A program made the position numbers and the translations under genes. Below the pieces are notes generated by a model. It did not search any database, was not told where the DNA came from, and saw nothing but the letters and a program-made list of their open reading frames with translations. Of a DNA stretch of 64,000 bases, positions 23,981 through 54,936 are shown piece after piece; within the stretch, counting starts at the first letter, position 1; every line of letters starts with the position of its first letter. Source of the stretch: Eledone cirrhosa (lineage: Eukaryota); the NCBI GenBank assembly GCA_964016885.1, contig OZ024744.1, positions 136,435,334 to 136,499,333 on the forward strand. The letters run 5' to 3'.

Positions 23981-25017
23981 CCAGATAGAAAAATGCGTAC
24001 AGCAAAAAAAAGTAATATCGTTGGAATATAAACCTTTAAAAATACAGGACAAGAAACTAAAATAAAACTTTAAAAGAATAGGACAAGAAACTAAGATAAA
24101 ACATTAAAGAATTGGACAAGAAATAAAAAATTTTACAATAATATTAGTGGCAAAATTTTTATTGGTAAAAAATCGAGTTCCACATTCAGAGGGCGTCGTC
24201 AGACCGGAGGGATCATTTGATCCTGGTTTGAACACCAATTGGGCCATAACCATACCCCTAGTTTATCAATCGGCGACACGCCTCATGTGTCATGCATAAT
24301 GTGAATGGACCCATGGGCCCATGAGCACAGATCTTGAGCAGCAGCGGACGGTCTTGTCGTCCCGCTCATCCTTGATCTTGACCAACCCGTCCATCTTCTC
24401 CTTGCATCTTGTCCTTGAGTTCAAGTCCGGCAGTCCAGATGAATGCGTGCCACAGCTTTCTGGTACAGGAAGGGGGAGCAGGAGGACTGGAGGGATGACG
24501 GGACAGAGGGAGGGAGGACCGGTGGTTGAGGGAGGTGCCGTAGTCGGTGGTCAGAGTCGACATCTTGTCCTGGTCGTCTTCTCCATCTTCGTCTGGTGTT
24601 GCGGGACCAGAAGTGCATTCTTGGAGGAGACCTGCAGCTGCATCGGCCAATTCTTCTTGCAATGGTCATTCTGACAGAGCAGAACTGCTCAACCAACCAA
24701 CCCCAACCAGAACCAACCGCTCAGGGGCAACGCACAATGAGAGCATGACAATTATTATGCACTAATCAAGAAGATACTGGGGCATAGCACAGGAAACGAA
24801 TAAAAAAATTTTGCCACTAATATTAATGTAAAATTTTTTATTTCTTGTCCAATTCTTTAAAGTTTTATCTTAGTTTCTTGTCCTATTCTTTTAAAGTTTT
24901 ATCTTAGTTTCTTGTCCTATTCTTTTAAAGTTTTATTTTAGTTTCTTGTCCTGTATTTTTAAAGGTTTATATTCCAACAATATTACTTTTTTTTGCTGTA
25001 CGCATCTTTCTATCTGG
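23981..25017. repeat. 3'-terminal foldback of Helitron A1: inverted arms ~23981-24163 and ~24798-25017 with ~33-bp subrepeats and a GC-rich spacer
   Basis: CCAGATAGAAAAATGCGTACAGC... is mirrored by ...GCTGTACGCATCTTTCTATCTGG. The right arm has one extra ~33-bp subunit. Confidence 0.93.
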
Positions 25018-25288
25018 TCTACTATTTTTTAAGGCAATGCAAGCAACAACTATCTAATAATTAAATGATCATAGTGAATTACTGACAAGTGATTGACATT
25101 TTAAAGTTCTTTTGAGTATAATTGCAATCTAGTTGAGGCAACTGGCTTAATGACAAAGCTAGTAAATCTTGAATGCATTTGAGATGATTAGTGCATAATA
25201 GTGAATTGGTGAAACTTGTGCATTTCAATTGTGTTACAATAGATGTAAGTTATATAGTAGTAATACTTTATCATTTTAACTTTTTAGA

Positions 25289-25648
25289 ATGGACAAAAAC
25301 CCATGCAAAGAAATGACTTTGACTGCAGTGATTCTCTCCAATTTACTTACAAAGCAAAACGTGGTCAAATACCTTATCATCTCTGATAAAATGCCCATTG
25401 AATCACTGAAAATCGGATGCATGGAATTCCTCATAAAATACACCTATGAATCGGAAGCCATCACATATATCAATGGATATAGGGAGTTGTTCACACTGGA
25501 AGACCATCACTTCATTTGTGACTTCATCAGTTATCTCCACGATTATCTCAGACACACAATGCCATTGATGAGAGGTGATCCAATGTGTGAGCATGTAACT
25601 AATCTTATAGAAGTTGTTATCGACCACCTGGCTTTTAGTGACATTTGA
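25289..25648 (+). CDS. 119-aa ORF/exon with BACK-like (BTB-associated) helical motif
   Basis: ILSNLLTKQNVVKYLIISDKMPIESLKIGCMEFL resembles the SPOP/BACK pattern L..NL..EN...L..AD....LK..C..FI. It is preceded by a pyrimidine tract and AG (25286-25287). Confidence 0.4.
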   Translation: MDKNPCKEMTLTAVILSNLLTKQNVVKYLIISDKMPIESLKIGCMEFLIKYTYESEAITYINGYRELFTLEDHHFICDFISYLHDYLRHTMPLMRGDPMCEHVTNLIEVVIDHLAFSDI

Positions 25649-25828
25649 CTGATTTGACTGATAATGATGTATTTTTAAAAAGTATGTGTACATTCTTGTT
25701 ACTATTTTAAGGCAATGCAAGCAACAACTATTTAATAAAATTTAAATTTAAAAATGACCATTGTGCATTACTAGTATGATGACATTTTATTAAGTCACAA
25801 AATTAGTCAGTCAGCCATAGAACAAGGA

Positions 25829-26540
25829 TCAGGTGGCAAAAACATTGGCAAAAATTTGTGTCAATTTAAGATTTCCAACATTGTTCAAATGTATATCTGG
25901 TTTGAAGTCAGATTTGTCAAATTTTGACCAATTTTCAATGTTGTGAAGATTGGGCAAGTTCAATTTTTGAATCATTTCTTTCATGCAGTAATTAAACTTT
26001 TCCAAACGAGAATTTCTCTTGCCCAAGTCATTTTTATTTTCAATTACACTTTGTGGACGTGGAATGACACCACTGTAGAAAATGGGTGTACAGTGGTGCT
26101 TTTCCGCTATTTTCTGTAGCCTTGCAAAGAGACTCTTCCCCTGTTTTTCCGGTTTTGTGCCTCGAATGGGCACTTTGTCCTTAATTTACAAATAAATGAT
26201 TAATAAAAAATACTTGGGCAAAAATTATTGTATTACTTTGCACAGCTTTGTAGTGCCAACGGTGAGACGAGGATACAGATCATTAGAGCCGACATGAACC
26301 ACCAATACTTTCACAAAAGGACAACAGATAACAATGTTGGCGATTAACATTACCTGGCTCTGACGGGCCCCAGGTATACAAAATATCTAAGTATTTTTGT
26401 TGGTATGATAAGTAAATACATTTGAATTAATATTTTTATACCTTCTGGTCATTCGATTTCGCCACATTTCTAATTATTGAATCACCCACAATATACTTGA
26501 ATTGTGGGTAATTTTTATTCAAAAGTGCACAGACGACCAT
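25829..26540 (-). CDS. SGNH/GDSL hydrolase (esterase), three exons 26540-26442, 26386-26237, 26179-25829, ~199 aa
   Basis: All four SGNH blocks occur in order after splicing two phase-0 GT-AG introns (26387-26441, 55 nt; 26180-26236, 57 nt): IVGDSIIR, IPGA, VVHVGSND, PDIHLNNVG. No internal stops. The start codon is uncertain. Confidence 0.85.
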
Positions 26541-26649
26541 TAAACAACGGCCATGGAGATTTGTACCATTCCCATTAAATCCTCGCCCCCAAATTGGATT
26601 AGGGGTGTCCTCGACCAATTGTTGCTACAAATATTCAAGAAATGAGCTA

Positions 26650-26824
26650 GATTCAAATGGGTTTTCCCTCAAAAAACATTTTTTTTTACCGTTTTTTACT
26701 GGTTTTTAATGGAAAAAAAACCGTTTGTAACTTTTTTTGGAAACTTTTTCAAGTCTGGTAAAAAACGTTTTTTTAACCGTTTTTTACTGGTTTTTTAATG
26801 GTAAAAAAACCGTTTGCAACCCTA
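26650..26824. mobile_element. Probable MITE/DNA-transposon remnant
   Basis: Internally duplicated A/T-run motifs (ACCGTTTTTTACTGGTTTTTAATGG) ending ...CCGTTTGCAACCCTAG, a TIR-like end. The partner TIR was not found. Confidence 0.3.
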
Positions 26825-26836
26825 GTCACATATACA

Positions 26837-27951
26837 CTAGCTAGAAAAATGCGTACAGCAAAAAAAAGTAATATTGTTGGAACAAACCTTTAAAAATACA
26901 GGACAAGGAAGTAAGATAAACCTTTAAAAATACAGGACAAAGAACTAAGATAAAACTTTAAAAGAATAGGACAAGGAATATAAATTTTTACAATAATATT
27001 AGTGGCAAAATTCAATTGGTAAAAAATTGAGTTTCCATCATTACACCAATTACAACTATGATGTTCCGCATGCATCCACTCCAACCATGATCACTTGTCT
27101 GTCATCTTTCCCGGTCCAACTCCTCGCGAATGACCCGGCGCAACTCGGACTGGGTCGGAGCAGGAACTGGAGGGGGAGAGGGAGGGGTACGGGTCTTGAC
27201 TCTGGGACGATGACGGCGAGTGACCAAGGTGAATGGGCCCGTGTTCGACTCGGAATCCTGCTGGTCCTCGATGACACTTTGAGGCACGGTTGACGGTTCC
27301 GGACTGGCTTCATGGGCAGTGGTAGAAGGGCAGGTGGATAGGGCAGAGTGCTTCTTCCTGGGAGAGCACTTGAAGCAGGTGAAGCCGGCGCCGGACTCGT
27401 TGAACCACTTCCAGACAGCACTGGGCATGTTGGCGCAGCAATGATGAAAGTTGAAGCAGGCGACGAGGGGGGAGGAGGTGGAGGCGTTGGTGCAGGAGCA
27501 ACAGACTGCTGATTTGGGAGTCATTGTAGCTGGGGGATGCAGGCGCTGAGGGGGCTCGAGTAGAAGGGAAGAACAGAAATGAACCATGATGACTTTTCCT
27601 ACATTTTTCCTGGCCCACTTCCTCATGAACCAATGAACCAGTTGGTACAACTCGGACTTGGAGGAGGAACACAAGACAGGGATCAATTTCATTGTATTGA
27701 TATTTCTCATTAAGTAATTTCATGTTACTCAAATAAATCACTTTTATTTGATCAATTATCTATTTTTCCAATAAAATTTTTGCCACTAATATTATTGTAA
27801 AAATTTATATTCCTTGTCCTATTCTTTTAAAGTTTTATCTTAGTTCTTTGTCCTGTATTTTTAAAGGTTTATCTTACTTCCTTGTCCTGTATTTTTAAAG
27901 GTTTGTTCCAACAATATTACTTTTTTTTGCTGTACGCATTTTTCTAGCTAG
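26837..27951. repeat. 3'-terminal foldback of A2: ~175-bp near-perfect inverted arms enclosing a ~760-bp spacer
   Basis: CTAGCTAGAAAAATGCGTACAGC... (26837-~27011) and ...GCTGTACGCATTTTTCTAGCTAG (~27776-27951). Confidence 0.95.
27060..27524 (-). pseudogene. PHD-finger fragment resembling the N-terminus of a CR1/Jockey-group LINE ORF1, inside the A2 foldback loop
   Basis: MTPKSAVCCSC...C..FHHCC...WKWF....FTCFKC, then a Pro-rich linker and IREELDRER followed (after a frameshift) by RQVIMVGV. Confidence 0.5.
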
Positions 27952-28424
27952 TTTCCTATTTTTCAAGGCAATGCAAACAACAACTACTTAATTAAATAGT
28001 TATTACTTTAGTTACTTCTATCAAAAAATCCCAAAAATGATGTTAATGAAAACTATAGGTGAAAGTGAAGCTATTCTTTTGTGACCTCTTAGTTACTTGT
28101 ACCAATTTTGAATTTAATTCAAGCTACAGTGTCAGCCTGTGCATTGGAGTCACAGAAATAAGTTGAGATATTTTATCTAATTGGTACAAGCATCCACTCC
28201 ACATGGCGGGGACATAGGTCAGATCGTGGAGCACTCACCTATCTTAAAAATATTAACTTATGATAAATAAGAGTCATTTAAGAAAATACAATTTTTTTAA
28301 ATTAGTAGGTGAGCATTAACAACTGAATCTAAATGGAGCAAATTTGCACCATTTGCATTTAGTTGAAAATAACATTTTAATTAAACATGACAAATTCTAA
28401 TGCAATAGAAGGCAAATATCAATT

Positions 28425-28760
28425 TTCACATGCAAATTTTTTTGGGATTTTTTTCACGCGCGCCATTTTTGGTCGATTTTTTGTCAATTTTTCACATGCA
28501 AATTTTTTTGGGTTTTTTTGATTTTTTTTTCACGCGCGCCACTTTTGTCGATTTTTTGTCAATTTTTCACATGATAATTTTTTTTTGGATTTTTGGATTT
28601 TCTTCACGCACGCCATTTTTGTCGATTTTTTTTGTCAATTTTTCACATGATAATTTTTTGGGGATTTTTGTATTTTCTTCACGCGCGCCATTTTTTGTCG
28701 ATTTTTCATATGCAAATTTTTTGATTTTCTTCTCACACGCCATTTTTGTCGATTTCATCA
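28425..28760. repeat. Degenerate ~60-70-bp T-rich tandem repeat (paralog at ~36975-37110)
   Basis: Recurrent TTTTCACATG...CACGCGCGCCATTTTT...GTCGATTTTT units. Confidence 0.75.
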
Positions 28761-29334
28761 TTTGAGTGTTCATAGTCCAAAAACAACTGTATTGCATTTT
28801 CGCGCCAGGCAAAAAAGTAATAAGCCGATCAAAAAGCCGCGAAACGTATATGGTGACTTTTTTCGAAAGCCGCGAAACGTATGAAGTGACCTTTTGCGAT
28901 TTTTTTTGCGACCATTTTGGCGAGACTTTTGCAGGGAAACAAATTTTTCATTTGTAATAGTCAAAATAAATAAGCCGATAAAAAAGCCGAGAGACGTCAT
29001 TTTCATATGTCAAATGAGCACACTATTCGCACCTATCGCAAATGAGTTCACTACTCGCACCTATCGGTACAAAAAATAGCACAACTATTCACAACTATTA
29101 GTACAAATCCAAATGATTTTCTGAATTTCTAGTATATCAATCAGCGACTGCTTTGAAAGAGAACAATGCAGTGAGTGATTACTCATTTGAATATAAATAG
29201 AAGACAACCTCAACTAGTTTGCAACGTGTGACCACTTATCGCGAGATAGGAGAACATAATAGCTCCTAATTAGCTCAATGATTAATGTTTACTGCCACAT
29301 TGTATCAACATTTAAAATTCAAATTCAAAAAAAT

Positions 29335-29903
29335 AACCGCAGTCACTGGGGGGGGGGGTTCAAATAACCATCGCACCCCGAATAACCGCAGTCACTAGGG
29401 GGGGTTCGAATAAGACCCTCACCCCAAATAACAGCAGTCACTGGGGGAGGGTTCGAATAAGCGCCTCACCCCGAATAATCGCAGTCACTGTGGGGGGGGG
29501 GGTTCGAATAAGCGCCGCACCCCGAATAACCGCAGTCACTGTGGGGGGGGGGGGGGGGGTTCGAATAAGCGCCTCACCCCGAATAATCGCAGTCACTGGG
29601 GGAGGGTTCGAATAAGCGCCGCACCCCGAATAACCGCAGTCACTGGGGGGAGGGTTCGAATAAGCGCCGCACCCCGAATAATCGCAGTCACTGGGGGGAG
29701 GGTTCGAATAAGCGCCGCACCCCGAATAACCGCAGTCACTGGGGGGAGGGTTCGAATAAGCGCCGCACCCCGAATAATCGCAGTCACTGGGGGGAGGGTT
29801 CGAATAAGCGGGGGGGGGGGGGGGGGGTTCGAATAAGCGTCTCACCCCGAATAATCGCAGTCACTGGGGGAGGGTTCGAATAAGCGCCGCACCCCGAATA
29901 ACC
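29335..29903. repeat. 47-48-bp G-rich minisatellite inside A2
   Basis: Unit GAATAAYCGCAGTCACTGGGGGGAGGGTTCGAATAAGCGCCGCACCCC, about 11 copies with variable G-runs. Confidence 0.92.
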
Positions 29904-30206
29904 CCTTATCCTCCTCTGACCGGTCCCAAGAGATGCATCAAATGCACAGAGCGTCACCCTTACTCACTCACTTACTCACTTGAACACAGTTTTTTTCAGC
30001 AAACTTTGATCATAACTTTTTTTTGTGCTGAACGAAATTTCGAGATTTTTAGCTTAAGAGATGTGCAATGATTTACTCTCCATGCTCATATAACTTTCAT
30101 GTGATTTTGATAATCGGAAGACATTCTAATAATGCTGTAAAGAGACGATTGCCAACAAAATCACTAAGACAACAATATTACTAAACCGACTACCGTCGGT
30201 TTAGGA

Positions 30207-31146
<940 letters not shown>

Positions 31147-31987
31147 ACAGAGCGTCACCCTTACTCACTCACTTACTCACTTGAACACAGTTTTTTTCAG
31201 CAAACTTTGATCATAACTTTTTTTGTGCTGAACGAAATTTCGAGATTTTTAGCTTAAGAGATGTGCAATGATTTACTCTCCATGCTCATATAACTTTCAT
31301 GTGATTTTGATAATCGGAAGACATTCTAATAATGCTGTAAAGAGACGATTGCCAACGAAATCACTAAGACAACAATATTACTAAACCGACTACCGTCGGT
31401 TTAGGATACAGTCCCCGTGTCACAAAGTTTTGATGCCAGTAGAGGATCATTTTCGAATTTCATTGAGAACAGTACCACCATGAGATCAAACTGGATTGAT
31501 TCCCATTTGAAATCTCTCTCTTTGCAAAAAGTTGACAATCTATCAAAAAATAGCATTGTAAACTTTAATCAAATATGTATGGGATATGTTTACTTAAATG
31601 GGTCTTTTTCTGCCAAAATGTGGCAGTTGGTCATTTCTTCCATAAAATAGGGTCTTGATGTACTTATAAGCATGTTCAACTGTGATGAATGAACATTCCA
31701 ATAAATTCAGTGGACTGTTTAATTTGCTCATATTGGACTAGACATGAAAAATGCGCAAGCTCAAAAGTGCCACAGAATGTTATAATAAACCTTCAAAAGT
31801 GTGGGACTAGAGTTGTTGCTAAAAAATATTGTAATCATTATATATCGTACATTCTGTGGCATCCTTTATAAAAATAGCTTAAACCAACGAAGCCTTTATT
31901 TTTACGCTATTTCACTTAGTTAATTCTTAGAGTGTAACATATAAAAATATGATTTACAACTATAAAATAAATTAATTAATATAATAA

Positions 31988-32075
31988 CAGAGCTGCGGAG
32001 CTGAAATTTAGGAAATAATGGAGTATCGGATCCTGAGTTGGAGCCAGTCAATTTTTGACCGACTCCGCAGCCCTG
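31988..32075. mobile_element. Tiny hAT-like MITE in the family B foldback loop (also at ~50144-50231 and ~58927-59014)
   Basis: TIR CAGAGCTGCGGAG.../...CTCCGCAGCCCTG, flanked by a near 8-bp duplication TATAATAA/TATAATAC. Confidence 0.6.
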
Positions 32076-33244
32076 TATAATACATTTCATATTAAAGTTA
32101 TTAATAAACCTATTTTACACTTCATGCAAATTACCACGAGATATTGATATTAGATATAAGATACAGCGCAATATCTACAGCTGTAAAAGTACGAAAGCGA
32201 AGTAATAATAAGTGGCTTAAGGTAATTCCAATATGAAAGTTTGTAGTGATAAAAATTTGATAATGCAATACGATTGTTAATATTATAGTTCTATGAAAAT
32301 GTAACAATAGATAACTAAATTATTTTACTATTAGTATATTTAAGAAATTATCATTATAGATTTGATCGTTCATATAAGCATCATATTAAGTTTCAACACA
32401 ATTATTTTGTTACTATGAGTATATGATAATAATATTACGTAATTATTTATAGCTGTTATTACATTAAACATAGATGTATTTATTTTTATATGTTACACTC
32501 TAAGAATTAACTAAGTGAAATAGCGTAAAAATAAAGGCTTCGTTGGTTTAAGCTATTTTTATAAAGGATGCCACAGAATGTACGATATATAATGATTACA
32601 ATATTTTTTAGCAACAACTCTAGTCCCACACTTTTGAAGGTTTATTATAACATTCTGTGGCACTTTTGAGCTTGCGCATTTTTCATGTCTAGTTTAATAT
32701 TTTTTTAAGGCAACGCTTGTAATAACTCTAGTTAAACAGGATATATATTAATAATAAATTATCGTTGTAATGTAATTAGATTATGTAATTGTTATTATAA
32801 ATTATCTTATAAATATTAGTGTAAGATGTATAAAAATATTTTCAGACTTTTAATATAAACAACTACAAAAAACAATCAATATTAAATCAATATATTATAC
32901 ATAATAGAAAACATAAAATATACAATACAAAAACAAAATATTTACATACAATTGCAATTATCAGTGTATATACATTTTCTTTATATTCCCTGAGCAAATT
33001 AATAAGATTTGTTTTTATTGTACATAATTTGATGACTTGTTGGAGTGTATTAAAAGATAGCAACAATTTGTGATTAAATTGTTATCTTAAGCAACTCACT
33101 TTTTAATAGTTGTTGGCTGAGCGAAATTGTAAAAGCCTATGAGCAAATATAAAAAAAAATACACAAACAACATTTCCTTGTGTTATTACAACATTAGATA
33201 AAATAATTGAGCAATGTCGTTATATTTTGCTCTTATTGCACATT

Positions 33245-33420
33245 AATAGTGTTTCTATTTTTCGGCACAAATCCATTACGGCAGTCCATTACTGGTACTT
33301 TATTTTATCGAATTAGTAAGTATGAAAGTCGAAGTTAACCTCGGCAGGATTTGAACTTAGAATGCAAAGGACCATAACAATACTGCAAAGCATGGTGTCT
33401 GACGCTCTACCAATACTTGT
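33245..33420 (-). mobile_element. Older degenerate SINE of the same family as 34141-34326
   Basis: Shared core ACTGGTACTTTATTTTATCG...AAAGTCGAAGTTAACCTCGGCAGGATTTGAAC. Confidence 0.7.
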
Positions 33421-33807
33421 GTTGAGCTGGTCATTAATTTATGGTGGTCGTGCGTGGAGTAGAGCAATCGCTAGTTGAAATATTATGAACAAAACATTTT
33501 TATTTGCCGAAGAACATATTTTCAATACTGTTTGTGAATGTGACGAAGGAAATACATTCTGATATGGAACAGTGTACAAAGTGTGTCTGTGAATAACATA
33601 ATGTTACCTCATGTTGTTGTCAAGACATAATGGATTTCGTTTATCCAGTTAGAAGATGAAACCTAGCCATCTCGGATTAGTTATATTTCATGCCATGTGT
33701 AAACGTGTTTGAGGATAGCAAAATATGCGCGTTAATTATAATAATTAGTTAATAATATTACAAAATATACCTAATTAAACTCTTTGCTTGAAATTTTATC
33801 ATTCTTC

Positions 33808-33916
<109 letters not shown>

Positions 33917-34140
33917 TCTAGTCCTTCGCTCAAGATTAATCTATAAGTTTAGATGTTTGCCTTCGTTTAAGTAAATATTACAGTAAGATTTTTAATATAA
34001 ACAACTGCAAAAAACAATTAATATTAAAACGAAAAAATTATCAATGATAAAAGAAGCGGATGCAACTTTTTTTTTTATAAAGTTATATTCCTGTTTCTTT
34101 AAAGAACATTTCATTTTTGTTCTATTGTAGGCGAAATAAT

Positions 34141-34326
34141 TGTTTCTACTTTAGGCACAAGGCCAGCAAATTACCCAGTACATTACTGGTACTTTATTTT
34201 ATCGACCCCGTAAGGATGAAAGGCAAAGTTAACCTCGGCGGGATTTGAACTCAGACTGTAAAGGGACGTAACTATGCTAGAAAGCATGGCGTCCAACCCT
34301 CTACCGATACTGCCAATTCACCGCCC
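34141..34326 (-). mobile_element. tRNA-derived SINE with 15-bp TSD
   Basis: TSD TGTAGGCGAAATAAT at 34126-34140 and 34327-34341. The empty site is seen in the other B copies (~55236-55250). 5' GGGCGGTGAATTGGCAG A-box-like head and GAGTTCAAATCCC B-box-like motif. Confidence 0.9.
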
Positions 34327-35552
34327 TGTAGGCGAAATAATGCAATGGTTTAATAGGGAAGATATAACTTACGAATTATGTCTCTAACCGTGTAACGCTT
34401 TTTAAGTAGATAACTACAATTGAAAATACTAAAGAAATGGAACCAACAATTCAATTTGAAAGTCGTCTAGTGACAGTGTATTACTGGTACTTTATTTTAT
34501 CGACCCCGTAACGATGAAAGGCAAAAATGCAAATGCTTAAAATTTAAATTGCCTTAATTCTATCGTCTGCTGTTTCATTAAAGGGAGATTATCGTCTGTA
34601 TTTAATTCTATCGTCTACTGTTCCACTAAACAGATATACCTCCACTATCGTCTCTATTTATACATTTTAACTTATAACTTATACACATTTGATTTGAAAT
34701 ATTTTATCTAGTCCCCCCTCTCAATATTATGATGATTTCTTTCGAATGAAACAGTTCTAGTCCTGTAGAAGCCATTTATATATATAATTGAACTGAGTTA
34801 AAAATTCACAATATTTATAATTAAATAAGCTCATATATATATGTGTGTATTTATCTGTTTATTGTATTATATATAATGTGTGTATATACAGGATGTCCCC
34901 CAAAAATATATACACACTTCAACAGCATTCTAATAACTATTGCCTGTACAGGTAATCAAAGTGTCAATCGAATGTTAGTTTCGTGTTTTAACAGTACAAA
35001 TTTACAATACACACATAAAACCAGTGTATATACATACATGAGTGTGTATACACATACATGAATGTGTATATACAATATATATGTATATATATATATAGAC
35101 ACATGTATTCACGGTGCAACGGTACATTAAAATATAGATGCGGGAGAGGGGGTGTATATATAGGGGCGCTGGGGATAAAGGAGTGTAAAGCGTGTGTAAT
35201 TGATATATTGAAGGAGAGGAGCGTGCAGCGATAGAGTAACAAATATATAGAGAGGGGGAGAGATGGTATTGAAGGGGAGGAGTGCAAAGCGAAAGAGTAA
35301 GAGATATAAATAGAGACGGAACAGATAGAGAGAAACAGGCGTAAGTAACAGTGGAAGAGATATAGAGAGAGGTACTCTGATTGGTTGAAAATTAGCCAAT
35401 CACATACGATCACCACCACGGCTATCCCCGAAAAATTTTTAAAGAAGCTAGGCATATATGTTAGAACACGAAAAGTGAACATTCTGTGTTTCACACTTTT
35501 CGTGTTCTAACAGATAAAAACTGATACTGCTGTCTACGACCTTTATATAGGA

Positions 35553-36429
35553 CTAGCAGTAAAGCCCGGCGTTGCTCGGGGTCGCTCAGTAGCTGTGTTA
35601 AAGTTACAATGTTAAGTTTCTTTCTTGGCTTAAAAACTGTAGTGTCTACTGTGCAGACTTGCATGTGGTGTTTTTGATTAATATTCCCTCAACCAACAAT
35701 ATGCCTTATGAAGTTAAGAAAACATAACGATAACCCGAATGTTATAACAAAAGAGGATGCTGGGGATAGAAACTGCACTGGTTATTTATTAACAAAGATC
35801 GAAAATGTAAACACTGCAACGCAGAGAAAAACATTAGCGTAACCAAATTATCAGTTATGTCTGTCTGCACGCCTATATCACCTCTCTGCACGACTGTCTG
35901 TCTGCACGCCTATATCACCTCTCTGCACGACTGTCTGTCTGCACGCGTATATCACCTCTCTGCACGACTGTCTGTCTGCACGACTGTCTGTCTGCACGCC
36001 TAACGACGAAATATTTGCTTGTTTTACGTAGTCTTTAAATAGACTTGTTTTCAAGTAAAAATATTGTTTTAAAATGCTTTTAAATGGAAATGAAGCAAAA
36101 CGGAAGCTTAGTGTTCGAACTGATGAATTTTGCAGGTCAATATTTTGCTGGCTCGACAACTGTTAAAGCCAGCGTAATTTTTTACGTAAGACGCTCAATG
36201 TAAACAGAACAAAGGGAAATAACTGATAACTTACGCTCAAAAATCGATACATTATATTCGATTTCGTCACATAGGGTGGGTCAATTTGAAATTTTTTTTT
36301 TCCGATGTCTTCGCTAGGGCTCAATGTACAAGTATAGCAATTTCGGTGCAATTCCGTGAGAGATTCTAAGAGGAGATGTGTGCCAAAAATCGATAGACAG
36401 ACAGACAACCACAGTTTTATATATATAGA
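35553..36429 (-). mobile_element. Canonical short non-autonomous Helitron (family C) with internal 37-bp minisatellite
   Basis: 5' A|TCTATATATAT. 3' short GC hairpin (CCCGAGCAACGCCGGG) about 10 nt before CTAG|T. Minisatellite at ~35858-36000. Confidence 0.9.
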
Positions 36430-36654
36430 TTGTCATGTTTCTCTGTATCTGCAATGTGGGTATACAAAATAAGAATTATGTTATTAACTTTTATTTAAAA
36501 TCCCCCAAAATGCTGTGAATGAAAACTTCAAAAAGTAATTCTATTTCTATTGATGACCTCTTAGTTGCTCATACTAATTTTGTAAAAGATTTCAAGCCAA
36601 TAATCAGAATGATCTGGTATAATTTTTATGCAGATAAATGACTAATTAGTATAA

Positions 36655-36720
36655 AGGGCCATCCAGATATCATGTGGACACCGCGAACCAAAAATGGTCA
36701 CATGATATCTGGATGGCTCC
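36655..36720. mobile_element. 66-bp palindromic micro-MITE, PIF/Harbinger-like
   Basis: 19-bp inverted repeat GCCATCCAGATATCATGTG/CACATGATATCTGGATGGC, TAA on both sides, absent from the paralogous A2 site (~28185). Confidence 0.6.
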
Positions 36721-37679
36721 TAAGCATCCCCTCCACATGGCGGGGACATGGGTCATCGTCGTGGAGTACTCACCTATTTTTTAAATATTAGACTATGATA
36801 AATGAATTTAGTTAAAAATACAATTTGAAATATATTAGATAATATTTAGTAGGTGAGCATTAACAACTGAATCTAAATGGTGCAATTACACCATTTGCAT
36901 TTAGTTGAAAATTACATTTTAATTAGACATGACAATAAATGTGACAAATTTTACACAATACAAAGCAAATGTCAATTTTCACATGCAAGTTTTTTTGAGG
37001 TTTTTTTGATTTTTTTCACACACAGCATTTTTGTCAATTTTCACATGCAAACTTTTTTAGGGATTTTTTTCACGCGCGCCATTTTTTTTTGATTTTTCAC
37101 ATGAATTTTTTCGGAGATTAATTACAAATTTTATGTGCATTTTTTACAATTTTTCGCATGTATATTATTTGTTTGCTTATGATGTGGCTTGCTTGTTGCT
37201 TGTTTTGTTTCACCTGATTTGACTGTTCATATTTATTTTAAAAATCCACCCCCCAAGTCCAAGTTGTGACCAAGAAATTTAATAGTGAAGAATTGCCAGT
37301 AAAGATGTGTAACTCCATTAGACATACATATAAATGTTTATAATATAAAATGTTACATTTTGGCAGACAACAGATACATTGGATAGACCTACTGCATACT
37401 TCGGCACTATCCTCTGACACTGTAGCTTGACAAATGTAACAAATTTCCTGTAGTACTACATATAAATGAAAAATTGCTCATGTTACAAAACAACAGTTAC
37501 ATTGGACAGACCTACTGCATACTTCGGCACTGTCCTCTGACACAGTTGCTTGACAAATGAAACAAATTTTTCATATAGTAGTACAGATTTTTATACTCTA
37601 TATTATTTTAATGTCTAATAGAGTTCACTTGGATGTGTAGGAAAGAGCATTCTGGAGTGATATTGGACCTATATTTTTT

Positions 37680-40600
37680 TTTAAAAAAGTAAAACAATAT
37701 TTGGCAATTTAGGTGGAAATTTTGGGTGCCTTTTGGTTATGCACGTGTCACTAATTTCATCCCATTTGTGAATTAAACAAGTTTGTGAATTAAACAAGTG
37801 TAATGACCTCCTGATGTGGAACCTAATGTGTGAACAATTGCTGATTGAAGTTGGAAATTGGTACCAAAAAACTGCTGGCGTTTTGAACTGAAATTCAATA
37901 AATCACAATGTATTTGAGTTTCTTGACCACTGGTTATGAGGAATCGGTTGATTGATACTACAAGGCAGTGCATTGTGGGTTGGAAATCTCTCCTGATGGT
38001 TGTTTTGTGCTCTGTATTGTCACATTGTTTTATTATGGTGTCATTTGATACAAGTAAAGTACGAAACTGTTGAGGGCCTTGAATAGGATGCAATGTCAAG
38101 TCTGTTTGAATTTCTGGTGTTTTGTGAGTTTCGAGTCCACATCCAGGTCTATGTGTGCAAGTACAAATTTGATCATTCAAACGTGGGCATTCATTTTCAT
38201 GACTTTTAGTGCATCTTAGTGTTTCATTCACTTGCAATTGGAATATTTGCTGTGCATTTGGTGGAAAATGTGGGTAGATATTTTTCCAAAAATCATGGGC
38301 ACATTTCTGAGCACCATCATTAAATCTCCCCCCAATTAATCTTCGCAGAATTGAAACATCCCGATCCCCTGGTGTGACAATATTTGTTATTTCCTGAACA
38401 ACTGGACTGAGTAATTGGGTAGACAACAAAGTTTCCCAAAGTTTGGGCAATTGGGCAATAGCTTGAAGTGTGGAATTGGCAAAACAGGCATTTTCCTTAT
38501 TTTGTAGTCTAATCATGGGAGTGAGCATGGAAATTGTAGCTAATTTAGGTTTTTTGGTAGGAGGAGCATATTCAGAAGGGTTGTCCACATTCAACATTCG
38601 CCTTGATCGTTTTTTTGGCATGCAAGATTCAGAAGCCATGCATGGTGGTTTATTTCTACATGGTCCAAGTGGAGGCAATTTTGTTGTAGAACGCAATTTG
38701 TTGTACTCTTCCCAAGCAGATTTGTCACACATGATCAGGGTTCGAGGGTCAAAATCTATCAAATAGACATTGCAGAGTTTCCTAGCTCGTGAAAGTGCAA
38801 CATAGGCCATTCCATCTGCGAACACCAGAGGACCAAGATCAGCAATGACCCCATCAACACTTATTCCCTGTGATTTATGGATGGTGATGGCATCGGCAAG
38901 GCTTAGGGGGAACTGTTTTTATGTCACATACACACCAGGAGAGATTTCATAGTCTGCAGTCACCTTTTCTATTGAAATGTCATTGCCTATCATGTGATCA
39001 AATTCCACAATGATTTGTCCCATTTTCCCATCTTTTCCATTGACCATGCTTTGCACTGTTCCCATGACACCATTACATAGCCCCTTCACCAAATTAATGT
39101 TTCGTCTCAGCATTACTCTGGCCCCAACTCCAACTTGCAATTCAGTCTCAAGTCCAGCAGTGTCTGATGCCTTTTTTGGTTTGGAAAATTTGTTTGACTT
39201 TGACTTTTTTTTACGACCTTTCTGGCGCATTCCTGAGTCCTCAGCAATAACTACAACTGTACTGATGTTGGCATGCTTAAGCATTTCCTTGTTGAATTCA
39301 TCTACAGATTCATTGACAGGCAAAATACAGACAAATTTTTGACTAGGTAATGTGCAAAGTTGCATTAGTTTCTCAGTTGCCTCTCTCATTGTTGCCCTGC
39401 GATCTGGGAATAGGCAATGTTCACTCAAAGTATTGATGTCCATGTCTGTAGGTGATCCTATTCTTATTCGACCCAACATTTCAGAATAGTTTTCACTGTC
39501 ATTTTTTTGCCGCATGTTTATAGTGAGCTCATCATAGTCGAAAAATTTCCACAGTGACTGCCCACTTATTCCCAGACCAGTCCTTTTAGCATCATATGCA
39601 GAAATACTGGAAAAGACTGTTTTTTCATTTACTGGTGGAAGTTGAAGTAGATCGCCAAAAACCAGAATATTTATTTTTCCAAAAGGGCTGGTCATTTGAC
39701 TCTGGTCCCCCAAAATCTCATCTAGACGCCTATGGATAAATGCAAACATCAGATGACTGACCATACTTATTTCATCGATAATTATCAGACGGACACCCTC
39801 TAGAGTGGATCGCAAAATTTTGAGTTCATCACTTTCTAATTCCCTATATGATGGTGACTTTCCATGTTGGACTGGGAGTTTCAAGAGCCTGTGCAAAGTG
39901 GTCCCCTTGATTTGGAAAGCAGCCATACCAGTTGGTGCACAAATGACTACTGGGGCCCCATTTCTCTTGCAACAAATTTGAGTAACTTTGTCAGAAATTA
40001 TATCAATGAGAAAACTTTTTCCTGTACCTCCTACACCAGAGACAAATTTGAGAAATTGTGGGCAATCATCACATCTGCACCTTGGTAGTGGTTTTTCCGA
40101 ATTCCAATGCAATTCCTGTTTTTCAATTGCTGATACAATTAGATTGTATATGGATATTTGATCTGTATTAAGCTGTGTTTCTTTTGTCTGTAGAGCAGTT
40201 TCATCTACATCTCGAATTTGGGGAACATCAATACCAGCCTCATCTCTTGCCTCCTTCTCCCCCCCTTCTCTCCGTCCTTCTCCGACCTCTCCCTCCTTTT
40301 CACCCTCCTTCTCCAACCTCTTCCCCATCTCAACTGCATCAGTGATTTTTTCTTCACATTTTGAAAATTCACCATATCTGGCAAATTGTTTGCACACAGA
40401 TGAAAGGACTCTTCAAATGTTTTGCAGCCACCCAACAAATCTTTGTCCTCATCGCGCCAGGGTTTGAACAGCATTAGAAGATTGTGGTAATAACGTTCTT
40501 TTGTGTCATTTTTGAGCTGTATATTTGGTGCTTTAACTACCCGCTCTTTTACACTATGAAAATACCCCTTGTCATTGAGCAATTTCATTTTTGTAGCCAC

Positions 40601-42090
40601 ATCTTTGTCAACAGGTTTTTTTTGTGTCCTCTCATATTTGCTGCCAACTTCATATAAGGAAGAATCTTCCAGGAATTTTGGCCGGTTTTTGTAAAAAGTT
40701 TCCACCATGTTCTCATAGAACAAGTCCATTGAGTCTTCACTCAGTTCATCGAGATCATTTTGAGATTTCAATCTGCGGCCGCGCCTACTGGGAATGTCTG
40801 CACCTACCCAAATAACATGATCTGATGACCCGTAAAAATGATGCCCCAAAAGTTTGTCAGCAGCTTCATACCCTCCTGTATCCCTTTTCCCAAGCACTTT
40901 TGTATTTCCCATATTTTGTTTTGGAATGATCCAGATTCGCCCACACTCCCTCAGCCTCATTTTTTTCAGCCTTAGTCTGATAGCAGGTGACATATCTATT
41001 CAAAATCATACTATTCTCACCAATGTATTGCACATCTATATTTGCTTGCCAGGCTAGAAGTAAACATGGATTGTAGTCATTTATGTACTTTTCTGATTCT
41101 TTTCTTTCCAATTGGTACAGGTTTTTTGTCCCATTACCATTTTTTCGTGATTTGATACTTTCAGAAACTGAGAAAAATCGAAATGGCCCCACTGCACGTG
41201 CAAAACCAAAACGGCATTTTTTACGCAAATTTTTCCTCTCCCCACTATTATCCAGCATGCTTTGCCACAAGTATGGACTAGGAACCGTCTAACGAGATTT
41301 GCCAAGTTTGGGCTGGCCACAGGGGATGGTAGCCAGCAAGTAATGCAGCGTTCAATAAATTGCTTGATTTTTTCTTTAGGATCTTTGTCAAAAATTACAC
41401 TGTCCCGAACCCAGGCTTTAAGGTGAATGTGAGGGGCACCACGTTGTTGATACTCGAGTCGCCAAAAGTAATGAATAATTTCCCCAAATGGGCCTTTTTT
41501 ATTTAAAATTACATCATGAAAAACAGCACTAAAACGATGGTGAAAGTACTCACTGACAGCCACAACATCATTTGCACAGAGATTCCCTATCGGCCTTGTT
41601 TCAACATTTGCAATGTCTTTATTGAGTTTTTCCAAAAATTCCCTCAAGCCTGGCCAAAAGTATTCAGCACATGAAAGAGTGATAAACAAATGGGCAGGAC
41701 TGAATTTCTCATCTATGGCATTCAAGTCGGAGCACTTGCGTTCCCAAAATGGCTTTGTTCCACGAACATTCGCCATCATCATTGACAAACCACTTTCCAA
41801 TTGTTCATCATTGGCTTCCAATCTTTTATAAAATTGAGCAAGTGTCAATTTTGGACTTTTGAGTGATTTTATTACGGCATAAATGCCAGAATCTGGTGCT
41901 CTTTTGTCAGCCTTGTCTAAATTGTAGAGAATGTACTGAATGTCTCTACGAAACCGGGGGGTCCTCATGTCTGAGTCTGTTTCTGATGAACATGTATGGC
42001 TTTACTCTACCATGGGGTCTGTTCATGTGCATCATTCCAAATTTTCCTTTAGGGAATAAGTGGGGCAAGCACATCAGATCCAGATTTGAC
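37680..42090 (-). pseudogene. Helitron RepHel transposase (HUH Rep + Pif1 helicase) fused to a C-terminal USP/C19 deubiquitinase domain; N-truncated and frameshifted
   Basis: Rep motifs FITLSCAEY, RLEYQQRGAPHIH and the Y...Y motif (RYVTCYQTK). Helicase motifs SGVGGTGKS, IIIDEISMV, FGDLLQLPPV, TIHKSQG, AYVALSRA. In the same frame follow LQNKENACFANSTLQ, QKCAHDF and IVH..GSTSGGHY. About four frameshifts plus a stop at 38919-38921. Confidence 0.93.
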
Positions 42091-42476
42091 TAATGTAATC
42101 ACAATCACAAGAGTTCCGCCGAAAAAAATTTGTCATTTCTGGATGGCCCTGTAGAGAGAGAGAGACTCGTAATTATCTCCCCTTGTTATCTCGGGCCGAT
42201 TCTCATCTCATAGATGCATCAAATGCACACAGCGTCACGCTTACTACTCACTCACTTGAACACAGGATTTATCAGCAAACTTTGATTATAAACTTTTTCC
42301 CGCTGGACCAAATTTTTAGATTTTTAAGCCAAAAGATGCATAATGATCTATAATGCTCATATAAGTTTTATCTCAGTTAAATAAAGTAGAGCCGCGCTGT
42401 ACTGTCGTAAACAGACGATTGCCAACGAAAACACGACCACAACAATATTACTAAACGGACTACCTTCCGTTTAGGA

Positions 42477-43039
42477 TATATACTAGTGTATTTTCACAGT
42501 AAAGGCTTTACCTCACATAATATCTCACATAACATTTACATTACTCTATATATACTATTGTATTTTCACAGTAAAGGCTTTACCTCACATAATATCTCAC
42601 ATAACATTTACATTACTCTATATATACTATTGTATTTTCATGGTAAAGGGTTTACCTCACATAATATCTCACATAACATTTACATTACTCTATATATACT
42701 ATTGTATTTTCACAGTAAAGGCTTTACCTCACATAATATCTCACATAACATTTACATTACTCTATATATACTATTGTATTTTCACAGTAAAGGCTTTACC
42801 TCACATAATATCTCACATAACATTTACATTACTCTATATATACTATTGTATTTTCATGGTAAAGGGTTTACCTCACATAATATCTCACATAACATTTACA
42901 TTACTCTATATATACTATTGTATTTTCACAGTAAAGGCTTTACCTCACATAATATCTCGCATAACATTTACATTACTCTATATATACTATTGTATTTTCA
43001 CAGTAAAGGCTTTACCTCACATAATATCTCACATAACAT
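42477..43039. repeat. 72-bp tandem repeat, ~8 copies (resumes at 48594-48660 after the LINE)
   Basis: Unit TATTTTCACAGTAAAGGCTTTACCTCACATAATATCTCACATAACATTTACATTACTCTATATATACTATTG. Confidence 0.95.
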
Positions 43040-43571
43040 CTCGTATACGAGAGACGTGTGTGAACAAGCTCGGCTACCGAGTTGGATTTACTTACTCAAA
43101 AGTGAGTTTTGATTAATTTTTTTATACTGTAATATACGTTAACCCCTTGCCTTGGTCGTCAAACTTTGAGTTTATTTATTTTCGCCCCTTTTTGGGGCGA
43201 ATTTTCCTTTTAAAAATTTATTATGGCAAACTGATAGAAATGGACGGAATTTTCACATCTCATCTTAACGAGAAAGCCACGCCCCCTAAGAAAGGTGATA
43301 CAGAGAAGCTAGAAGCACAATGCTCTAAGTCTTCCCTCCTCACTTCTGCAAATTAAAAGAAACATTTGTAAAAATGGGTGAAAACCCAGAAAGTCACATA
43401 AACGCAGACAAAAACAACAATGACAATAACAGCAATAGTCACAACACCAACCAAGGAAAAAATAACGATAACACCAAACAAAGCGAACCCACTACTGGTG
43501 CCTCCTTTGCACAGGCGGTCCGGAAAACATAGACCTGCAAGCAACTGGTCATTACAACTCTGAGAGAAAAG

Positions 43572-44400
43572 ATGAAGGAAGCAAAACAGTATGTAACTTT
43601 CAAAGAAGGAGGAGACTTCACAATCACCTCCCCACAAGAAATCAAAAGAGACGCGACACTAAGAACGATATCTTTCAGAACAATTTCCAACATAACAAGG
43701 AAACCAACTCAATTATCCCAAAAAGAGATTGAGCTGGTCCTAAAAAATGTGTGGAGTGATATATCGTTCATACAAAAAGGGCCACTCTATGGGAATATAA
43801 CGGTGCTAATGAAAGATCAATTGACGGCCAGGAAATACTCTGTGGCGCCAATTGTTTCCAAGCTGCACACATTTTTCCCCACATATTTGGGGAAAAGAAC
43901 GCAGAAAATAAGAGTCTCCGGAATCCGGCCAAATGCATGCATTTCCTGGGTACTAACAGGATTTTTAGAAGATGAGGACGGAATCCTCAGTAGGAGAAGT
44001 CACCACAGACGTTTTCGGCGGTTTGAGCGTGGAGGTTCTGGTCCAAATGAGACCAGAACGAATAGCTAGAATACCACAGAGGGCGTCCCTCGATGGAGAA
44101 ACATTTATATACATTTCAGCCGAGGGTAGGAGGCCCATATGTTACTACTGTTCAAGCAGGGGTCATCTAAGGGCTGCCTGTCCTCAATTGACAAAAAAAA
44201 AAGGCTCTTTTGCCTACACACCGCCACCACCACCACCACCACCACCACCACCACCACAACAACAACAACAAAAACAACACGGAAAAATAACACAAGACAC
44301 GGCCCCACCCAAAACAACTCCAAAAACACACAAACACAACAAAACCCCAAAATACACCACTCCCCGACAGCACGGACGAGGACCCAGCTGAAACGGCACC
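43572..44400 (+). pseudogene. LINE ORF1 (gag-like, zinc knuckle), frameshifted
   Basis: RRPICYYCSSRGHLRAACP CCHC motif, split over ORFs 43572-44069 and 43972-44391. Confidence 0.75.
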
Positions 44401-44963
44401 TAGTGACGAAGATGGGGGACCCTTCCAACCTGTAAAAAGGAAAAAAAGAAAGCACCACTCGAACATAAACGAAACAAACACACAACCACCAACAAAAACA
44501 AAACAAACAGAACAAACAAAATCCGCCCCACCCCAAAACATAACACATACAACAAAACGCAAGCACACATAAGAACAACAAACAAATACAACACAAATAA
44601 AACAGTATACATACATTAACACAAATAACAAAGAACTAGTAAAAACAATACACAAAGACCCTTCGGTGGAAACTGAAGGGCAATTCTTTGCAAGCGCGGC
44701 CAACAAACCGCATTTAAAAATGATAAGACTCCCAATGGACACCTATGCAAAACTAAGAGAACTTTCCTGAGGACGTGGGGAAAACATGTACTCGACCCTA
44801 TAACCGCGTCCTCTTGAAACGTTTCCCCACCCACACCTCACCAAACACCCCCACCCCACCACAGAACAACACCCCACCAAACAAGCCCTCCAATACGCCC
44901 ACGGATATTGTGCAACCTGCTCCTCAGGAGCCGAACAGGTAGGTCCTTCCTCTTTTAACCAAC

Positions 44964-47900: not shown

Positions 47901-48356
47901 CAGGCATGGGGGCCTGGGTAGGGATCCTTTGAATAAGATCTGTCCGAGATGCGTGCATGACGACGAAACCGTTGCGCACGCATTCGTACACTGCCCAGTC
48001 ATTGCCGATCTGTGGGGCTATGTGGAACGACTACTGTCGAGGGTGGGACCAATCCGGTTGACCACCGAGTCCATTGTCACGATCAAACCGCCTCCCCCTT
48101 TCAAAAACGAAGGAGAGGCGGTTTTTCTCTGTGTGATAGCCATGGCTAAGAAGTTGTATGGTGGACGAGGCTGAAAGGGCTGAGGTCAGACACCTTTCTC
48201 TCCGGCCAACAACTGGTCCCCTTTTTCAAATACCATTTTAAAAGAAGGATCAGAATGGAGAGAGAGGTGCTCTACCCCAGCAAGTTTTATGAAAGGTGGG
48301 TGAAAGTAGGGAGAATGGCCAGAGTGAATGGGTCTTCTCTCTATATCAGCCTGTAG
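44964..48356 (+). pseudogene. LINE ORF2: AP endonuclease, reverse transcriptase, zf-RVT; disrupted
   Basis: CLNIRGL, LVGDWN, SYLDR, SDHKLV; KSPGLDG, FRPITLLN, DQSKAFD, RQGCPLS, AYADD; CPRC...ETVAHAFVHC. Several stops and frameshifts. Confidence 0.93.
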
Positions 48357-48797
48357 GTGAAAGAAGAGGAAAAAGAGGAGACGAGGGAAGCACCTACTCT
48401 TTGTGCTCCTGAGGAGAAGGGTTGCACATTTTTTCCGGGGTGTGTGCGACCCATGTTAATGCCCCCTCCCTATTGAGGACTTCGTTTGTTGTTGTTATTT
48501 CATTGTTATATTTTTGTACTCGTTAATTATATGTAAACTTCCCCCCTTGTATCTGTCCCTACCTTTTGTGCCCTAGTGGCAAATAAAGAAACCACTCTAT
48601 ATATACTATTGTATTTTCACTGTAAAGGCTTTACCTCACACAATATCTCACATAATATCGAATCTATGAGTATTTATTTTGAGAACAATACTATAACATC
48701 AGTATGAGCGACCAGTTACAGCCAGTTTCGCCAGAAAGAGGTAGAGAATTCTGGCCGGTTTGAACATTAAAGGGTTAATGTTTTCTTTCGTTGACAG

Positions 48798-53726: not shown

Positions 53727-53803
53727 AGCTACACTATATATTTAAACATATATACAGTGATACCTCGCTACTTGGCGGTTCATACGCTATATATATATAT
53801 ATA

Positions 53804-54638
53804 TAGGGTAAGAATAACTAGGGTAAGAACGGGATGGAAGAAGTTTAGGGAACTACTACCACTGCTAGCTGCAAAAGGCTTCTCCCTCAGAATGAAAGGC
53901 AGACTGTATGATGCGTGTATCCGAACAGCGATGCTGCATGGTAGTGAGACCTGGGCGCTGAAGGTGGAAGACTTACGTAGATTAGAGAGAAACGAAGCCT
54001 GCATGCTCCGATGGATGTGTAACAGTAATATACGTGAACGACAAAGCATAAATGAATTGAGAGAGAGACTGAGCATAAGAGGAATCAAATGCTGCGTGCA
54101 GGAGAGGCGGTTACGCTGGTATGGACATGTGATGCGTATGAAGGATGACAGCTGCATAAAAAGGTGCAGAGCACTAGAAGTTGATGGAAACCGCGGAGTG
54201 GGGAGACCCAAGATGACTTGGGATGAGGTGATAAAAGCCGACCTTACCCAACTACACCTCTCAAAGTCAATGACACACGACCGTGACTTCTGGCGTCACG
54301 CAGTAATACAGGGTACCCGACCTCCCATGGGTACATGCTGAAGCATATAAACGATATGCCCCCCCCCCCACCGCAAGGTGGTCGTGGAGGTGCCACGGCA
54401 AAAAAGCACCCAGCCCACACTGTAAAGTGGACGTGTAGGCGCCACGAAAAAGCACCCAGCACTCACTGTAAATGAGGTTGGTGTTAGGAAGGGCATCCAG
54501 CTGTAGAAATCAAGCCAGATCAGTTCCTGTATGAGCAAGGCATGGTCAGCCGACCAGACACTGCCCACAACAGGACAACCCGTCTAACCCATGCTAGCGT
54601 GGAAGAACGGACGTAAAACGGTGATGATGATGTGATGA

Positions 54639-54642
<4 letters not shown>
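53804..54642 (+). mobile_element. 5'-truncated RTE-clade LINE (ORF C-terminus, 3' UTR, (GAT)n tail) inserted in a TA run
   Basis: GWKKFRELLPLL...KGRLYDACIRTAMLHGSETW...RRLRWYGHVMR...GRPKMTW, ending in GATGATGAT. Confidence 0.9.
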
Positions 54643-54683
<41 letters not shown>

Positions 54684-54936
54684 TAAGTAATTAATACCGT
54701 ATAAATGGTACAAAGACTGTTTATGTAAAATGTATTTCTCAACAGAGCATTGAATACTTAGGAGAAATTCAAAACGAAGAGTGATAAAATTTTCAAGCAA
54801 AGAGTTTAATTAGGTAATGACTTACAAATTTGTTTCAGTATATAGACAAAGCCTGAAGCGTTAATTATAATAATTAGTTAATAATATTACAAAATATACC
54901 TAATTAAACTCTTTGCTTGAAATTTTATCATTCTTC

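Follow-up and report, generated by a model that had tools for sequence, protein, structure and literature searches.

A predicted spliced NADAR-SGNH gene on the minus strand

The window analysed here is the whole stretch of 64,000 nt from the Eledone cirrhosa contig OZ024744.1. On its minus strand, exons at 26540-26442 (99 nt), 26386-26237 (150 nt) and 26179-25829 (351 nt) join into 199 codons, along which GDS, PGA, HVGSND and PDIH follow one another in SGNH order. The two GT-AG phase-0 introns of 55 and 57 nt that an earlier, sequence-only reading had placed between these blocks were confirmed at the sequence level: when up to two GT-AG introns of 45-75 nt were allowed in a 900-nt region, the longest ATG-started spliced frame reached 199 aa in the real sequence and at most 129 aa in 60/60 shuffles, none of which matched it. 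GC content is 18% in these introns versus 35-44% in the exons. The same reading had taken the frame for a stand-alone 199-aa gene, and this part had to be given up. The exon starts at an acceptor at 26624 (ttgtag/CAA; slashes mark junctions throughout), the frame is open from there through ATG 26540, and this ATG encodes an internal Met, residue 140 of the reconstructed fusion, conserved in the last helix of NADAR. Reconstruction of the frame shows that the SGNH part is the predicted C-terminal domain of a spliced NADAR-SGNH gene of at least five exons and at least 338 aa, with the following parts:

36449-36431, 35552-35515 and 31737-31594, minus strand: NADAR exon a, split by two Helitrons, with the frame restored across both empty sites
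31540..31593, minus strand: intron between exons a and b, 54 nt, GT-AG, phase 2, 24% GC
31410..31539, minus strand: NADAR exon b, Pfam NADAR positions 82-115 (E 0.031)
26625..31409, minus strand: intron, 215 nt without insert B, which splits its donor as GTA/TGT
26442..26624, minus strand: exon c, with the NADAR end (LVED...IWG...LM), a linker and SGNH block I GDS; Ser codon 26480-26478
26387..26441, minus strand: intron, 55 nt, GT-AG, phase 0, from the spliced-frame reconstruction and shuffle test
26237..26386, minus strand: exon d, SGNH blocks II (PGA) and III (HVGSND)
26180..26236, minus strand: intron, 57 nt, GT-AG, phase 0, two in-frame stops, from the same reconstruction and test
25829..26179, minus strand: exon e, C-terminal half of SGNH, block V as D-x-H; AATAAA at 25791

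Exon a reaches an acceptor at 36450 and carries one extra base near 31623 that shifts the frame; no start codon was found in its pieces between 36449 and 31594, the start lying further upstream.

In Pfam NADAR, positions 118-159 matched by exon c (E 0.083) directly continue those matched by exon b, so that the profile is contiguous across a 4.6-kb insert; both pieces score below the cut-off, as do all Pfam matches to the NADAR and SGNH pieces relative to their curated cut-offs. Using a profile built from 10 of 11 viral NADAR loci, joined exons a-c (with X at the breaks) scored 47.4 bits over positions 11-140, compared with 8.0 for the best of 1000 shuffles, 13.3 for exon a alone, 9-13 for single exons and 32.2 for b+c; exons joined in the wrong order (c+b) gave a best domain of 9.0 bits and the reversed sequence 0.5. 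The motifs TVEHAYKYIK and LVED provide the catalytic Glu, a Lys seven residues on and the last-strand Glu, which their motifs and spacing allow to be matched to E43, K50 and E125 in an oomycete NADAR; the site equivalent to its D130 is N or a gap, and is not conserved (PMC11543638). A PDB search with the NADAR pieces and an NCBIfam scan of five pieces returned nothing relevant.

Exons d and e each point to the GDSL/SGNH clan, in agreement with the SGNH-type product proposed from sequence, and their signals, individually weak, make this identity very likely when taken together. Exon e alone matched Pfam Lipase_GDSL_3 at positions 78-176 of 178 (E 0.0077; 17 bits, below the cut-off of 27), and since this match starts at position 78, space remains for the 83 preceding residues. 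For exon d, the ZfL2-1 ORF1 esterase (4C1B) was the only PDB match at E<=10 (E 0.64). In the ESM Atlas, both exons pointed to the GDSL clan, with a best named score of 0.87 for exon d and scores of 0.91-0.92 for exon e; the 10 best named matches of each exon all belonged to this clan, as they did for one third of shuffled proteins, and the top ranks, ahead of these names, were unnamed eukaryotic clusters. Blocks I (G-D-S), II (Gly) and III (G-x-N-D) are ordered and usually spaced, with catalytic positions S21, G39 and N68 (numbered from ATG 26540) separated by 18 and 29 residues versus 22 and 30 in ZfL2-1. No protein relative of exon e was present among 1.84 billion representatives, its PDB matches were unrelated, and its single-sequence AlphaFold model, at pLDDT 45, was too poor for use. 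A profile of 120 viral SGNH-like proteins, a narrow family itself lacking Pfam matches, gave -1.1 bits for the spliced product, and 675 shuffles scored as well. One weak SGNH match (E 0.018), on the giant-virus record L115, which has no Rep, was discarded when it was not reproduced on rescreening. Separately, a SGNH-like family of ~195 aa related to a giant-virus bin protein (L147 1360-1971; P0121-P0240) gave 792 matches; the 120 that are listed carry no precomputed Pfam label. Contigs assembled from sequencing runs retain the introns and contain no intron-skipping joint, which has no bearing on expression.

The gene behind the transposase of a Helitron

The earlier proposal that the gene lies inside a Helitron, on the transposase strand, gained support once nested inserts were removed. 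The strand is that of RepHel, and the gene falls within a RepHel-USP element, here called D:

23981..42476, minus strand: element D, putative HLE2-clade Helitron, 18.5 kb as found and 9,271 bp minus three nested inserts
42451..42476, minus strand: 5' terminus of D, TC followed by a hairpin (z = -5.0; 0/200 shuffles fold as well)
37773..42080, minus strand: RepHel-USP of D, lacking ~670 residues at the N-terminus, with four frame changes and an in-frame stop
35553..36430, minus strand: insert H, non-autonomous Helitron (TC...CTAG)
31738..35514, minus strand: insert C1, non-autonomous Helitron with a 5' hairpin and a long terminal inverted repeat
26837..31406, minus strand: insert B, non-autonomous relative of D, 4,570 bp, ending CTAG/T
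23981..25017, minus strand: 3' terminal module of D, inverted arms 25017-24804 / 24160-23981, 82% over 214 columns

With the inserts removed, the fusion gene begins 1,323 bp past the RepHel-USP stop on the same strand, and the SGNH serine lies ~2.1 kb from that stop. No 3' end of D was seen between RepHel and the gene, whose first acceptor lies 17 nt past the D/B homology block; it is the NADAR exons that connect the RepHel side of D to its SGNH side. Element D starts A/TC and ends CTGG/T, the 3' end being placed to within a few bases and adjoining an 80-bp satellite. Its 5' and 3' flanks are different satellites, and there is no empty site that would confirm D as one insertion. Altogether, this anatomy makes it highly probable that NADAR-SGNH is the second gene of an HLE2-clade Helitron, located ~1.3 kb behind RepHel-USP.

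RepHel-USP of D matched Pfam Helitron_like_N (2e-25), PIF1 (1.5e-26) and UCH (7e-9), mapped by tblastn to residues 674-2111 of P0001 and carries the Rep motif YFWRLEYQQRGAPHIH. That this transposase is heavily disrupted, as first noted, is true of the D copy with its frame changes and stop; the pieces then read as one RepHel belong in fact to two copies, since the D copy and 53741-51224 (element C2) overlap by ~65 residues, and the reading as a single interrupted gene was rejected on these overlapping residues. The DUF6570 match lies on the separate copy 53741-51224, and D has lost that region. For class assignment, the F/Y-w-R signature before Rep motif 2 (PMC4067079) is present in D as YFWRLEYQQRG, and motif 2 itself (RGAPH) has Ala between G and P, neither the Ser of HLE2 nor the Leu of HLE1, an Ala also found in the closest metagenomic loci. 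The C-terminus of D is UCH, a domain described as almost exclusive to HLE2 (PMC11417382); the AP endonuclease domain, 12-16-nt subTIRs and TT insertion of strict Helentrons were not found in D, and termini of HLE1 type (5' TC, 3' CTRR, A/T insertion without duplication) were. Seven 5' ends in the window fall into two non-canonical families that start A/TC with a hairpin (z -5.0 and -5.6) and have CTRR/T 3' ends; the hairpins of D and of the B family differ by one C-G to G-C pair exchange. The 3' module of D has a 53% GC loop between its arms and the CTGG/T end. Canonical HLE1 termini have a 16-20-nt hairpin ~11 nt from the 3' end; the last 50 nt of D, B and C1 gave no stable hairpin (z -0.5 to +1.3), and insert H, which looks canonical and served as control, did not beat shuffles either (z -0.6).

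Nested inserts and their surroundings

Exact empty sites were restored for C1, C2 and B. Removing insert H restores the frame, one extra A being counted with the insert, and the A/T empty site of C1, an element with 99% copies at 49-59 kb, restores Q-F-L-S-N-M. Insert B has a doubled 5' end, an AT microsatellite, a 48-bp tandem array and 189-bp arms (27951-27763 / 27024-26837). It resembles D by 75% over 260 nt at the 5' end, 73-75% between 28583-27994 and D 37111-36467, and 88% at the 3' end, and it joins the post-RepHel region directly to a D-type 3' end with the gene absent; the related elements B and C both lack NADAR-SGNH. Removing B at A/T recreates a GTATGT donor, a context found at 12/3788 AT sites. 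A separate SGNH element with its 5' end at 31406 was also considered and rejected, as removal of 31406-26837 restores the splice donor and the NADAR frame.

Several further features were observed in the window. Element C2 (56427-49894, minus strand) sits at an exact A/T site inside C3 (plus strand) in opposite orientation, in the interval 49211-59264; in C2, the N-terminal half of a second RepHel with DUF6570 replaces 660 bp of C1, and a retroelement fragment lies at ~53790-54340. Two Helitron families have terminal modules of ~1 kb (23981-25017, 26837-27951, 31738-32692, 49894-50848 and 58310-59264), consisting of arms of ~190-220 bp, an unrelated loop of 530-740 bp and a right arm that ends CTRR/T; the motif TTGCCTT(A/G)AAA is common to them, just before the left arm. 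Such inverted-repeat units were not retained as MITEs, their outer ends being CTRR/T Helitron ends. Inverted repeats of >=60 bp were found at 0/31 metagenomic RepHel loci. The inverted-repeat loop of B contains a 205-codon frame (27102-27719, minus strand) that lacks Pfam support; a stretch of it is Cys-rich, PHD-like and degenerate, and an acidic-basic helix looks like LINE ORF1 pieces. The intron between exons b and c (26625-26836) holds a unit of ~78 bp twice, starting TAGGGTTGCAAACGG, a start that we take to resemble a hAT-type end; the partner end was not seen. Likewise, TAGGGTTGC at 26827, a motif that we take to be hAT-like, was considered as a sign of a hAT-like owner and rejected: it lies within an intron and no partner end was seen.

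Behind the SGNH stop, a 112-codon frame (25403-25741, minus strand) may be the remains of further cargo, as may several short frames in the 53% GC loop at 24200-24780; neither has a Pfam match, and the loop shows the highest contig depth outside the arms. A decayed LINE (43000-48600, plus strand) with a CCHC knuckle, endonuclease, reverse transcriptase and zf-RVT lies within a 72-bp tandem array. The transposon nest is bracketed by satellites at 1-23979 and 60640-64000, made of 80-bp units (~300 copies, with higher-order repeats) and 30-bp units, both with extreme strand skew.

State of the gene in this copy and in related copies

The earlier reading had described the gene as intact, which the reconstruction contradicts. 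The NADAR frame is interrupted by three Helitron insertions and one frameshift, and block V is one codon short. These defects show that the NADAR-SGNH gene of this copy, judged on sequence, is dead. Block V reads D-x-H in the window, and contigs of three of four runs (X1, X4 and X5) have three more nucleotides at 25891-25892 that yield D-x-x-H, the form of block V in ZfL2-1 (D279, H282; PMC3905857); the D-x-x-H form is thus present in family contigs and missing from this copy because of three bases fewer here. Among the coding substitutions shown between window and contigs, nine further rows being left out, 6/6 change a residue, and one yields an Arg, as in the last helix of the NADAR profile. 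These substitutions show no sign of purifying selection as far as they can be read from copies that are themselves defective.

Summed contig depth, which is not a copy number, varied strongly along the element. In run X1 it was 31 (30.6) over exon c, rose to ~580-1250 across exons d-e and, along the last 1.3 kb toward 23981, reached ~4400-5700 in most bins, with higher values on the repeat arms. Nowhere in the stretch is contig depth lower than around exon c, with 30.6 in X1 and none in X4, X5 and X7. Contigs of X1, X4 and X5 share a breakpoint at 26477, directly after the catalytic Ser codon, and most contig depth over SGNH comes from copies breaking there. In addition, contigs of X1 and X4 join 25237 to 28188, one loose-end sequence recurs at 26008, 25427 and 25161, and one X1 contig departs from the window exactly at 26836, as expected for a copy without insert B. 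The depth steps and shared breakpoints fit a putative family whose copies retain the 3' end and have internal deletions. The sole match of the loose-end sequence in the window is in the 5' region of D (3 mismatches in 18), which 8/100 shuffles equal, with a pattern shortened after the match had been seen; two full-length loose-end motifs matched nothing within the window.

The search for relatives extended to 120 listed RepHel relatives (of 390 matches), among which 20 carry UCH and none has a SGNH Pfam label or a NADAR profile match. SGNH and NADAR were likewise found at 0/31 metagenomic loci with a Rep domain (of 146 loci screened), most of them too short to tell, with >2 kb after the helicase in only 2/11 measurable loci.

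Comparison with known systems

The premise that transposon-borne SGNH domains are intronless and confined to LINEs overlooks texim, a group of fish SGNH genes that are rich in introns and associated with Helitrons (PMC4021074). Like the gene of D, texim has introns, SGNH, a tie to Helitrons, multiple copies and kinship with the CR1 esterase, its function being unknown; teximY has 15 exons, and the Helitron coding region lies 3' of the gene or in its last intron (PMC4021074). In contrast, and as compared by description only, the gene of D lies behind RepHel and has introns of 54-57 nt and an N-terminal NADAR. For amphioxus, sea urchin and Oikopleura, the texim study finds no link to a Helitron, and it places the capture in fish (PMC4021074). 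The association of SGNH with a Helitron is thus already published, as is USP in HLE2.

Element D resembles HLE2, proto-Helentron and HLE2-reverse elements in its Helentron-clade Rep, lack of endonuclease, UCH, 5' stem-loop, CTRR-type 3' end, A/T insertion without duplication, doubled 5' ends and self-insertion; it differs in its start TC, its animal host and D-type 3' arms of ~190-220 bp around a 530-740-bp loop versus 12-16 nt (PMC4067079, PMC11417382, PMC5148889). Among these, proto-Helentron combines a 5' stem-loop with a CTAG end, USP/UCH is a known HLE2 domain (PMC11417382, PMC4067079), and doubled 5' ends and self-insertion are described for Fusarium Helitrons (PMC5148889). Searches of the HELIANO supplement returned no match for SGNH, GDSL or NADAR.

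GDSL esterases are common to LINEs, LTR and Penelope-like elements (PMC5408684, PMC6431247). The ZfL2-1 ORF1 esterase of CR1/L2/RTEX LINEs (4C1B) shares with D the SGNH blocks, their spacing, PGA and HVG-ND, and belongs to an intronless ORF1 of a retrotransposon, behind a coiled coil (PMC3905857); unlike it, the SGNH of D is spliced, follows a NADAR, belongs to a DNA transposon and has a shortened block V in this copy. The NADAR of D is similar to the YbiA family in its full-length domain and the last-strand glutamate that marks this family (PMC11543638). NADARs were reported in retrotransposons, namely Ectocarpus Gypsy Pol and oyster Tx1 ORF1 (PMC12477816), and the NADAR of D differs from the reported transposon cases in being Helitron-borne, spliced, SGNH-fused and broken (PMC11543638, PMC11125620, PMC12477816). 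Literature searches, Repbase not included, yielded no NADAR-SGNH fusion, Helitron-borne NADAR or 190-220-bp terminal arms in the text that was available, and neither did term look-ups in the accessible parts of PMC12730594, PMC10294476 and PMC13282606. The repeats appear similar to those of octopus-type cephalopods.

Possible reasons for the presence of the gene

Because USP on RepHel, NADAR and SGNH make up three modification-removing enzymes, our leading explanation, held tentatively and a little short of even, is that the gene would serve counter-defence by erasing host modifications; given the anatomy described above, an eraser role itself would be evenly balanced. Since the gene is whole, with uniform mini-introns and an exon e that has no protein relative, we infer that it would have been resident in the element for long, gaining its compact form with 54-57-nt introns, and it would have been kept through help to transposition. 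Rolling-circle transposition exposes single-stranded DNA. NADAR would strip ADP-ribose from guanines of this exposed intermediate or of element RNA, SGNH would act on an associated substrate by cleaving off an acetyl or acyl ester, and ubiquitin would be detached by the USP domain of RepHel. In line with the first of these steps, NADARs hydrolyse guanine-ADP-ribose, and CARP-1 of shellfish (clam) is a guanine-specific DNA ADP-ribosyltransferase (PMC11543638). Shortened non-autonomous copies would then spread the SGNH tail, minus its catalytic start, as passengers. Against such a counter-defence count the absence of NADAR and SGNH from the 120 listed RepHel relatives, the 31 RepHel loci and elements B and C, the shown coding substitutions, which all change amino acids, and the N or gap at the D130 site. 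That the three erasers form a set purposely kept in an animal HLE2 lineage with giant terminal hairpins, with NADAR undoing guanine ADP-ribosylation of the single-stranded intermediate, is a more specific version that we regard as distinctly doubtful. We still only infer that this is a dedicated accessory gene of the lineage, as the sequence-only reading had suggested.

The same absence of the gene from these relatives, loci and elements is what would be seen if NADAR-SGNH were passive cargo, acquired by terminator bypass, with a LINE ORF1 pool or a rapidly evolving host gene as its source, and playing no role in transposition. Both domains are known in LINE ORF1 proteins (PMC12477816, PMC5408684) and end bypass is the usual route of capture (PMC6431247); most SGNH depth, moreover, comes from copies broken at 26477, and the differences seen are only amino-acid-changing. 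Such an origin nevertheless appears rather unlikely to us, as the gene is whole and multi-exonic, with uniform mini-introns, and co-oriented behind RepHel; full-gene capture is called exceptionally rare (PMC6431247), and no host source of exon e was found in the protein collections searched with that exon. A LINE ORF1 present in place was rejected: the reverse transcriptase is not linked, and the LINE at 43-48.6 kb is on the opposite strand.

It is improbable that the gene is a resident accessory for membrane or lipid handling, in which SGNH would bind phospholipids and move the complex or RNA and NADAR would only bind nucleic acid or ADP-ribose. The ZfL2-1 esterase binds liposomes with slow turnover and has a proposed role in movement, it is the only PDB match of exon d, and the spacings of 18 and 29 are close to its 22 and 30 (PMC3905857). 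The coiled coil that precedes the domain in ZfL2-1 is however absent here, and fusion to NADAR points to nucleic-acid chemistry. Rolling-circle DNA transposons are not known to have a cytoplasmic particle stage, which also counts against membrane handling.

Very improbable is a host NADAR-SGNH gene that was hit by Helitrons and has RepHel D as a mere neighbour. NADARs are known in molluscs and other invertebrates (PMC11125620), exon c has the lowest contig depth and D lacks an empty site, all as such a gene would have it; on the other hand, D shows no 3' end between RepHel and the gene, only 17 nt separate the D/B block from the first acceptor, the SGNH tail occurs in multiple copies and runs on into a Helitron 3' end, and exon e has no protein relatives, which indicates that this is not a conserved host gene. 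Finally, an intact stand-alone 199-aa SGNH gene starting at 26540 is scarcely credible: the frame is open from this ATG and transcription from within insert B would be possible in principle, but this codon encodes the Met conserved in the last NADAR helix, downstream of acceptor 26624, and block V is one codon short.

What the finding may mean

Animal NADARs and transposon-borne SGNH esterases are both without a known physiological role, and their union in one spliced gene behind a deubiquitinase transposase offers a testable case for DNA ADP-ribosylation as a defence against rolling-circle elements. It also suggests that the partnership of SGNH with Helitrons extends beyond fish. Helitron surveys that rely on ORFs or TIRs would miss genes with such mini-introns and ends made of 1-kb terminal inverted repeats. 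Should the gene be passive cargo, it would add one more case of Helitron gene capture. If the three erasers do form a purposely kept set, an animal genome and its transposon would be engaged in a DarT/NADAR-like conflict, and SGNH would be an old Helitron accessory, not a fish-specific capture.
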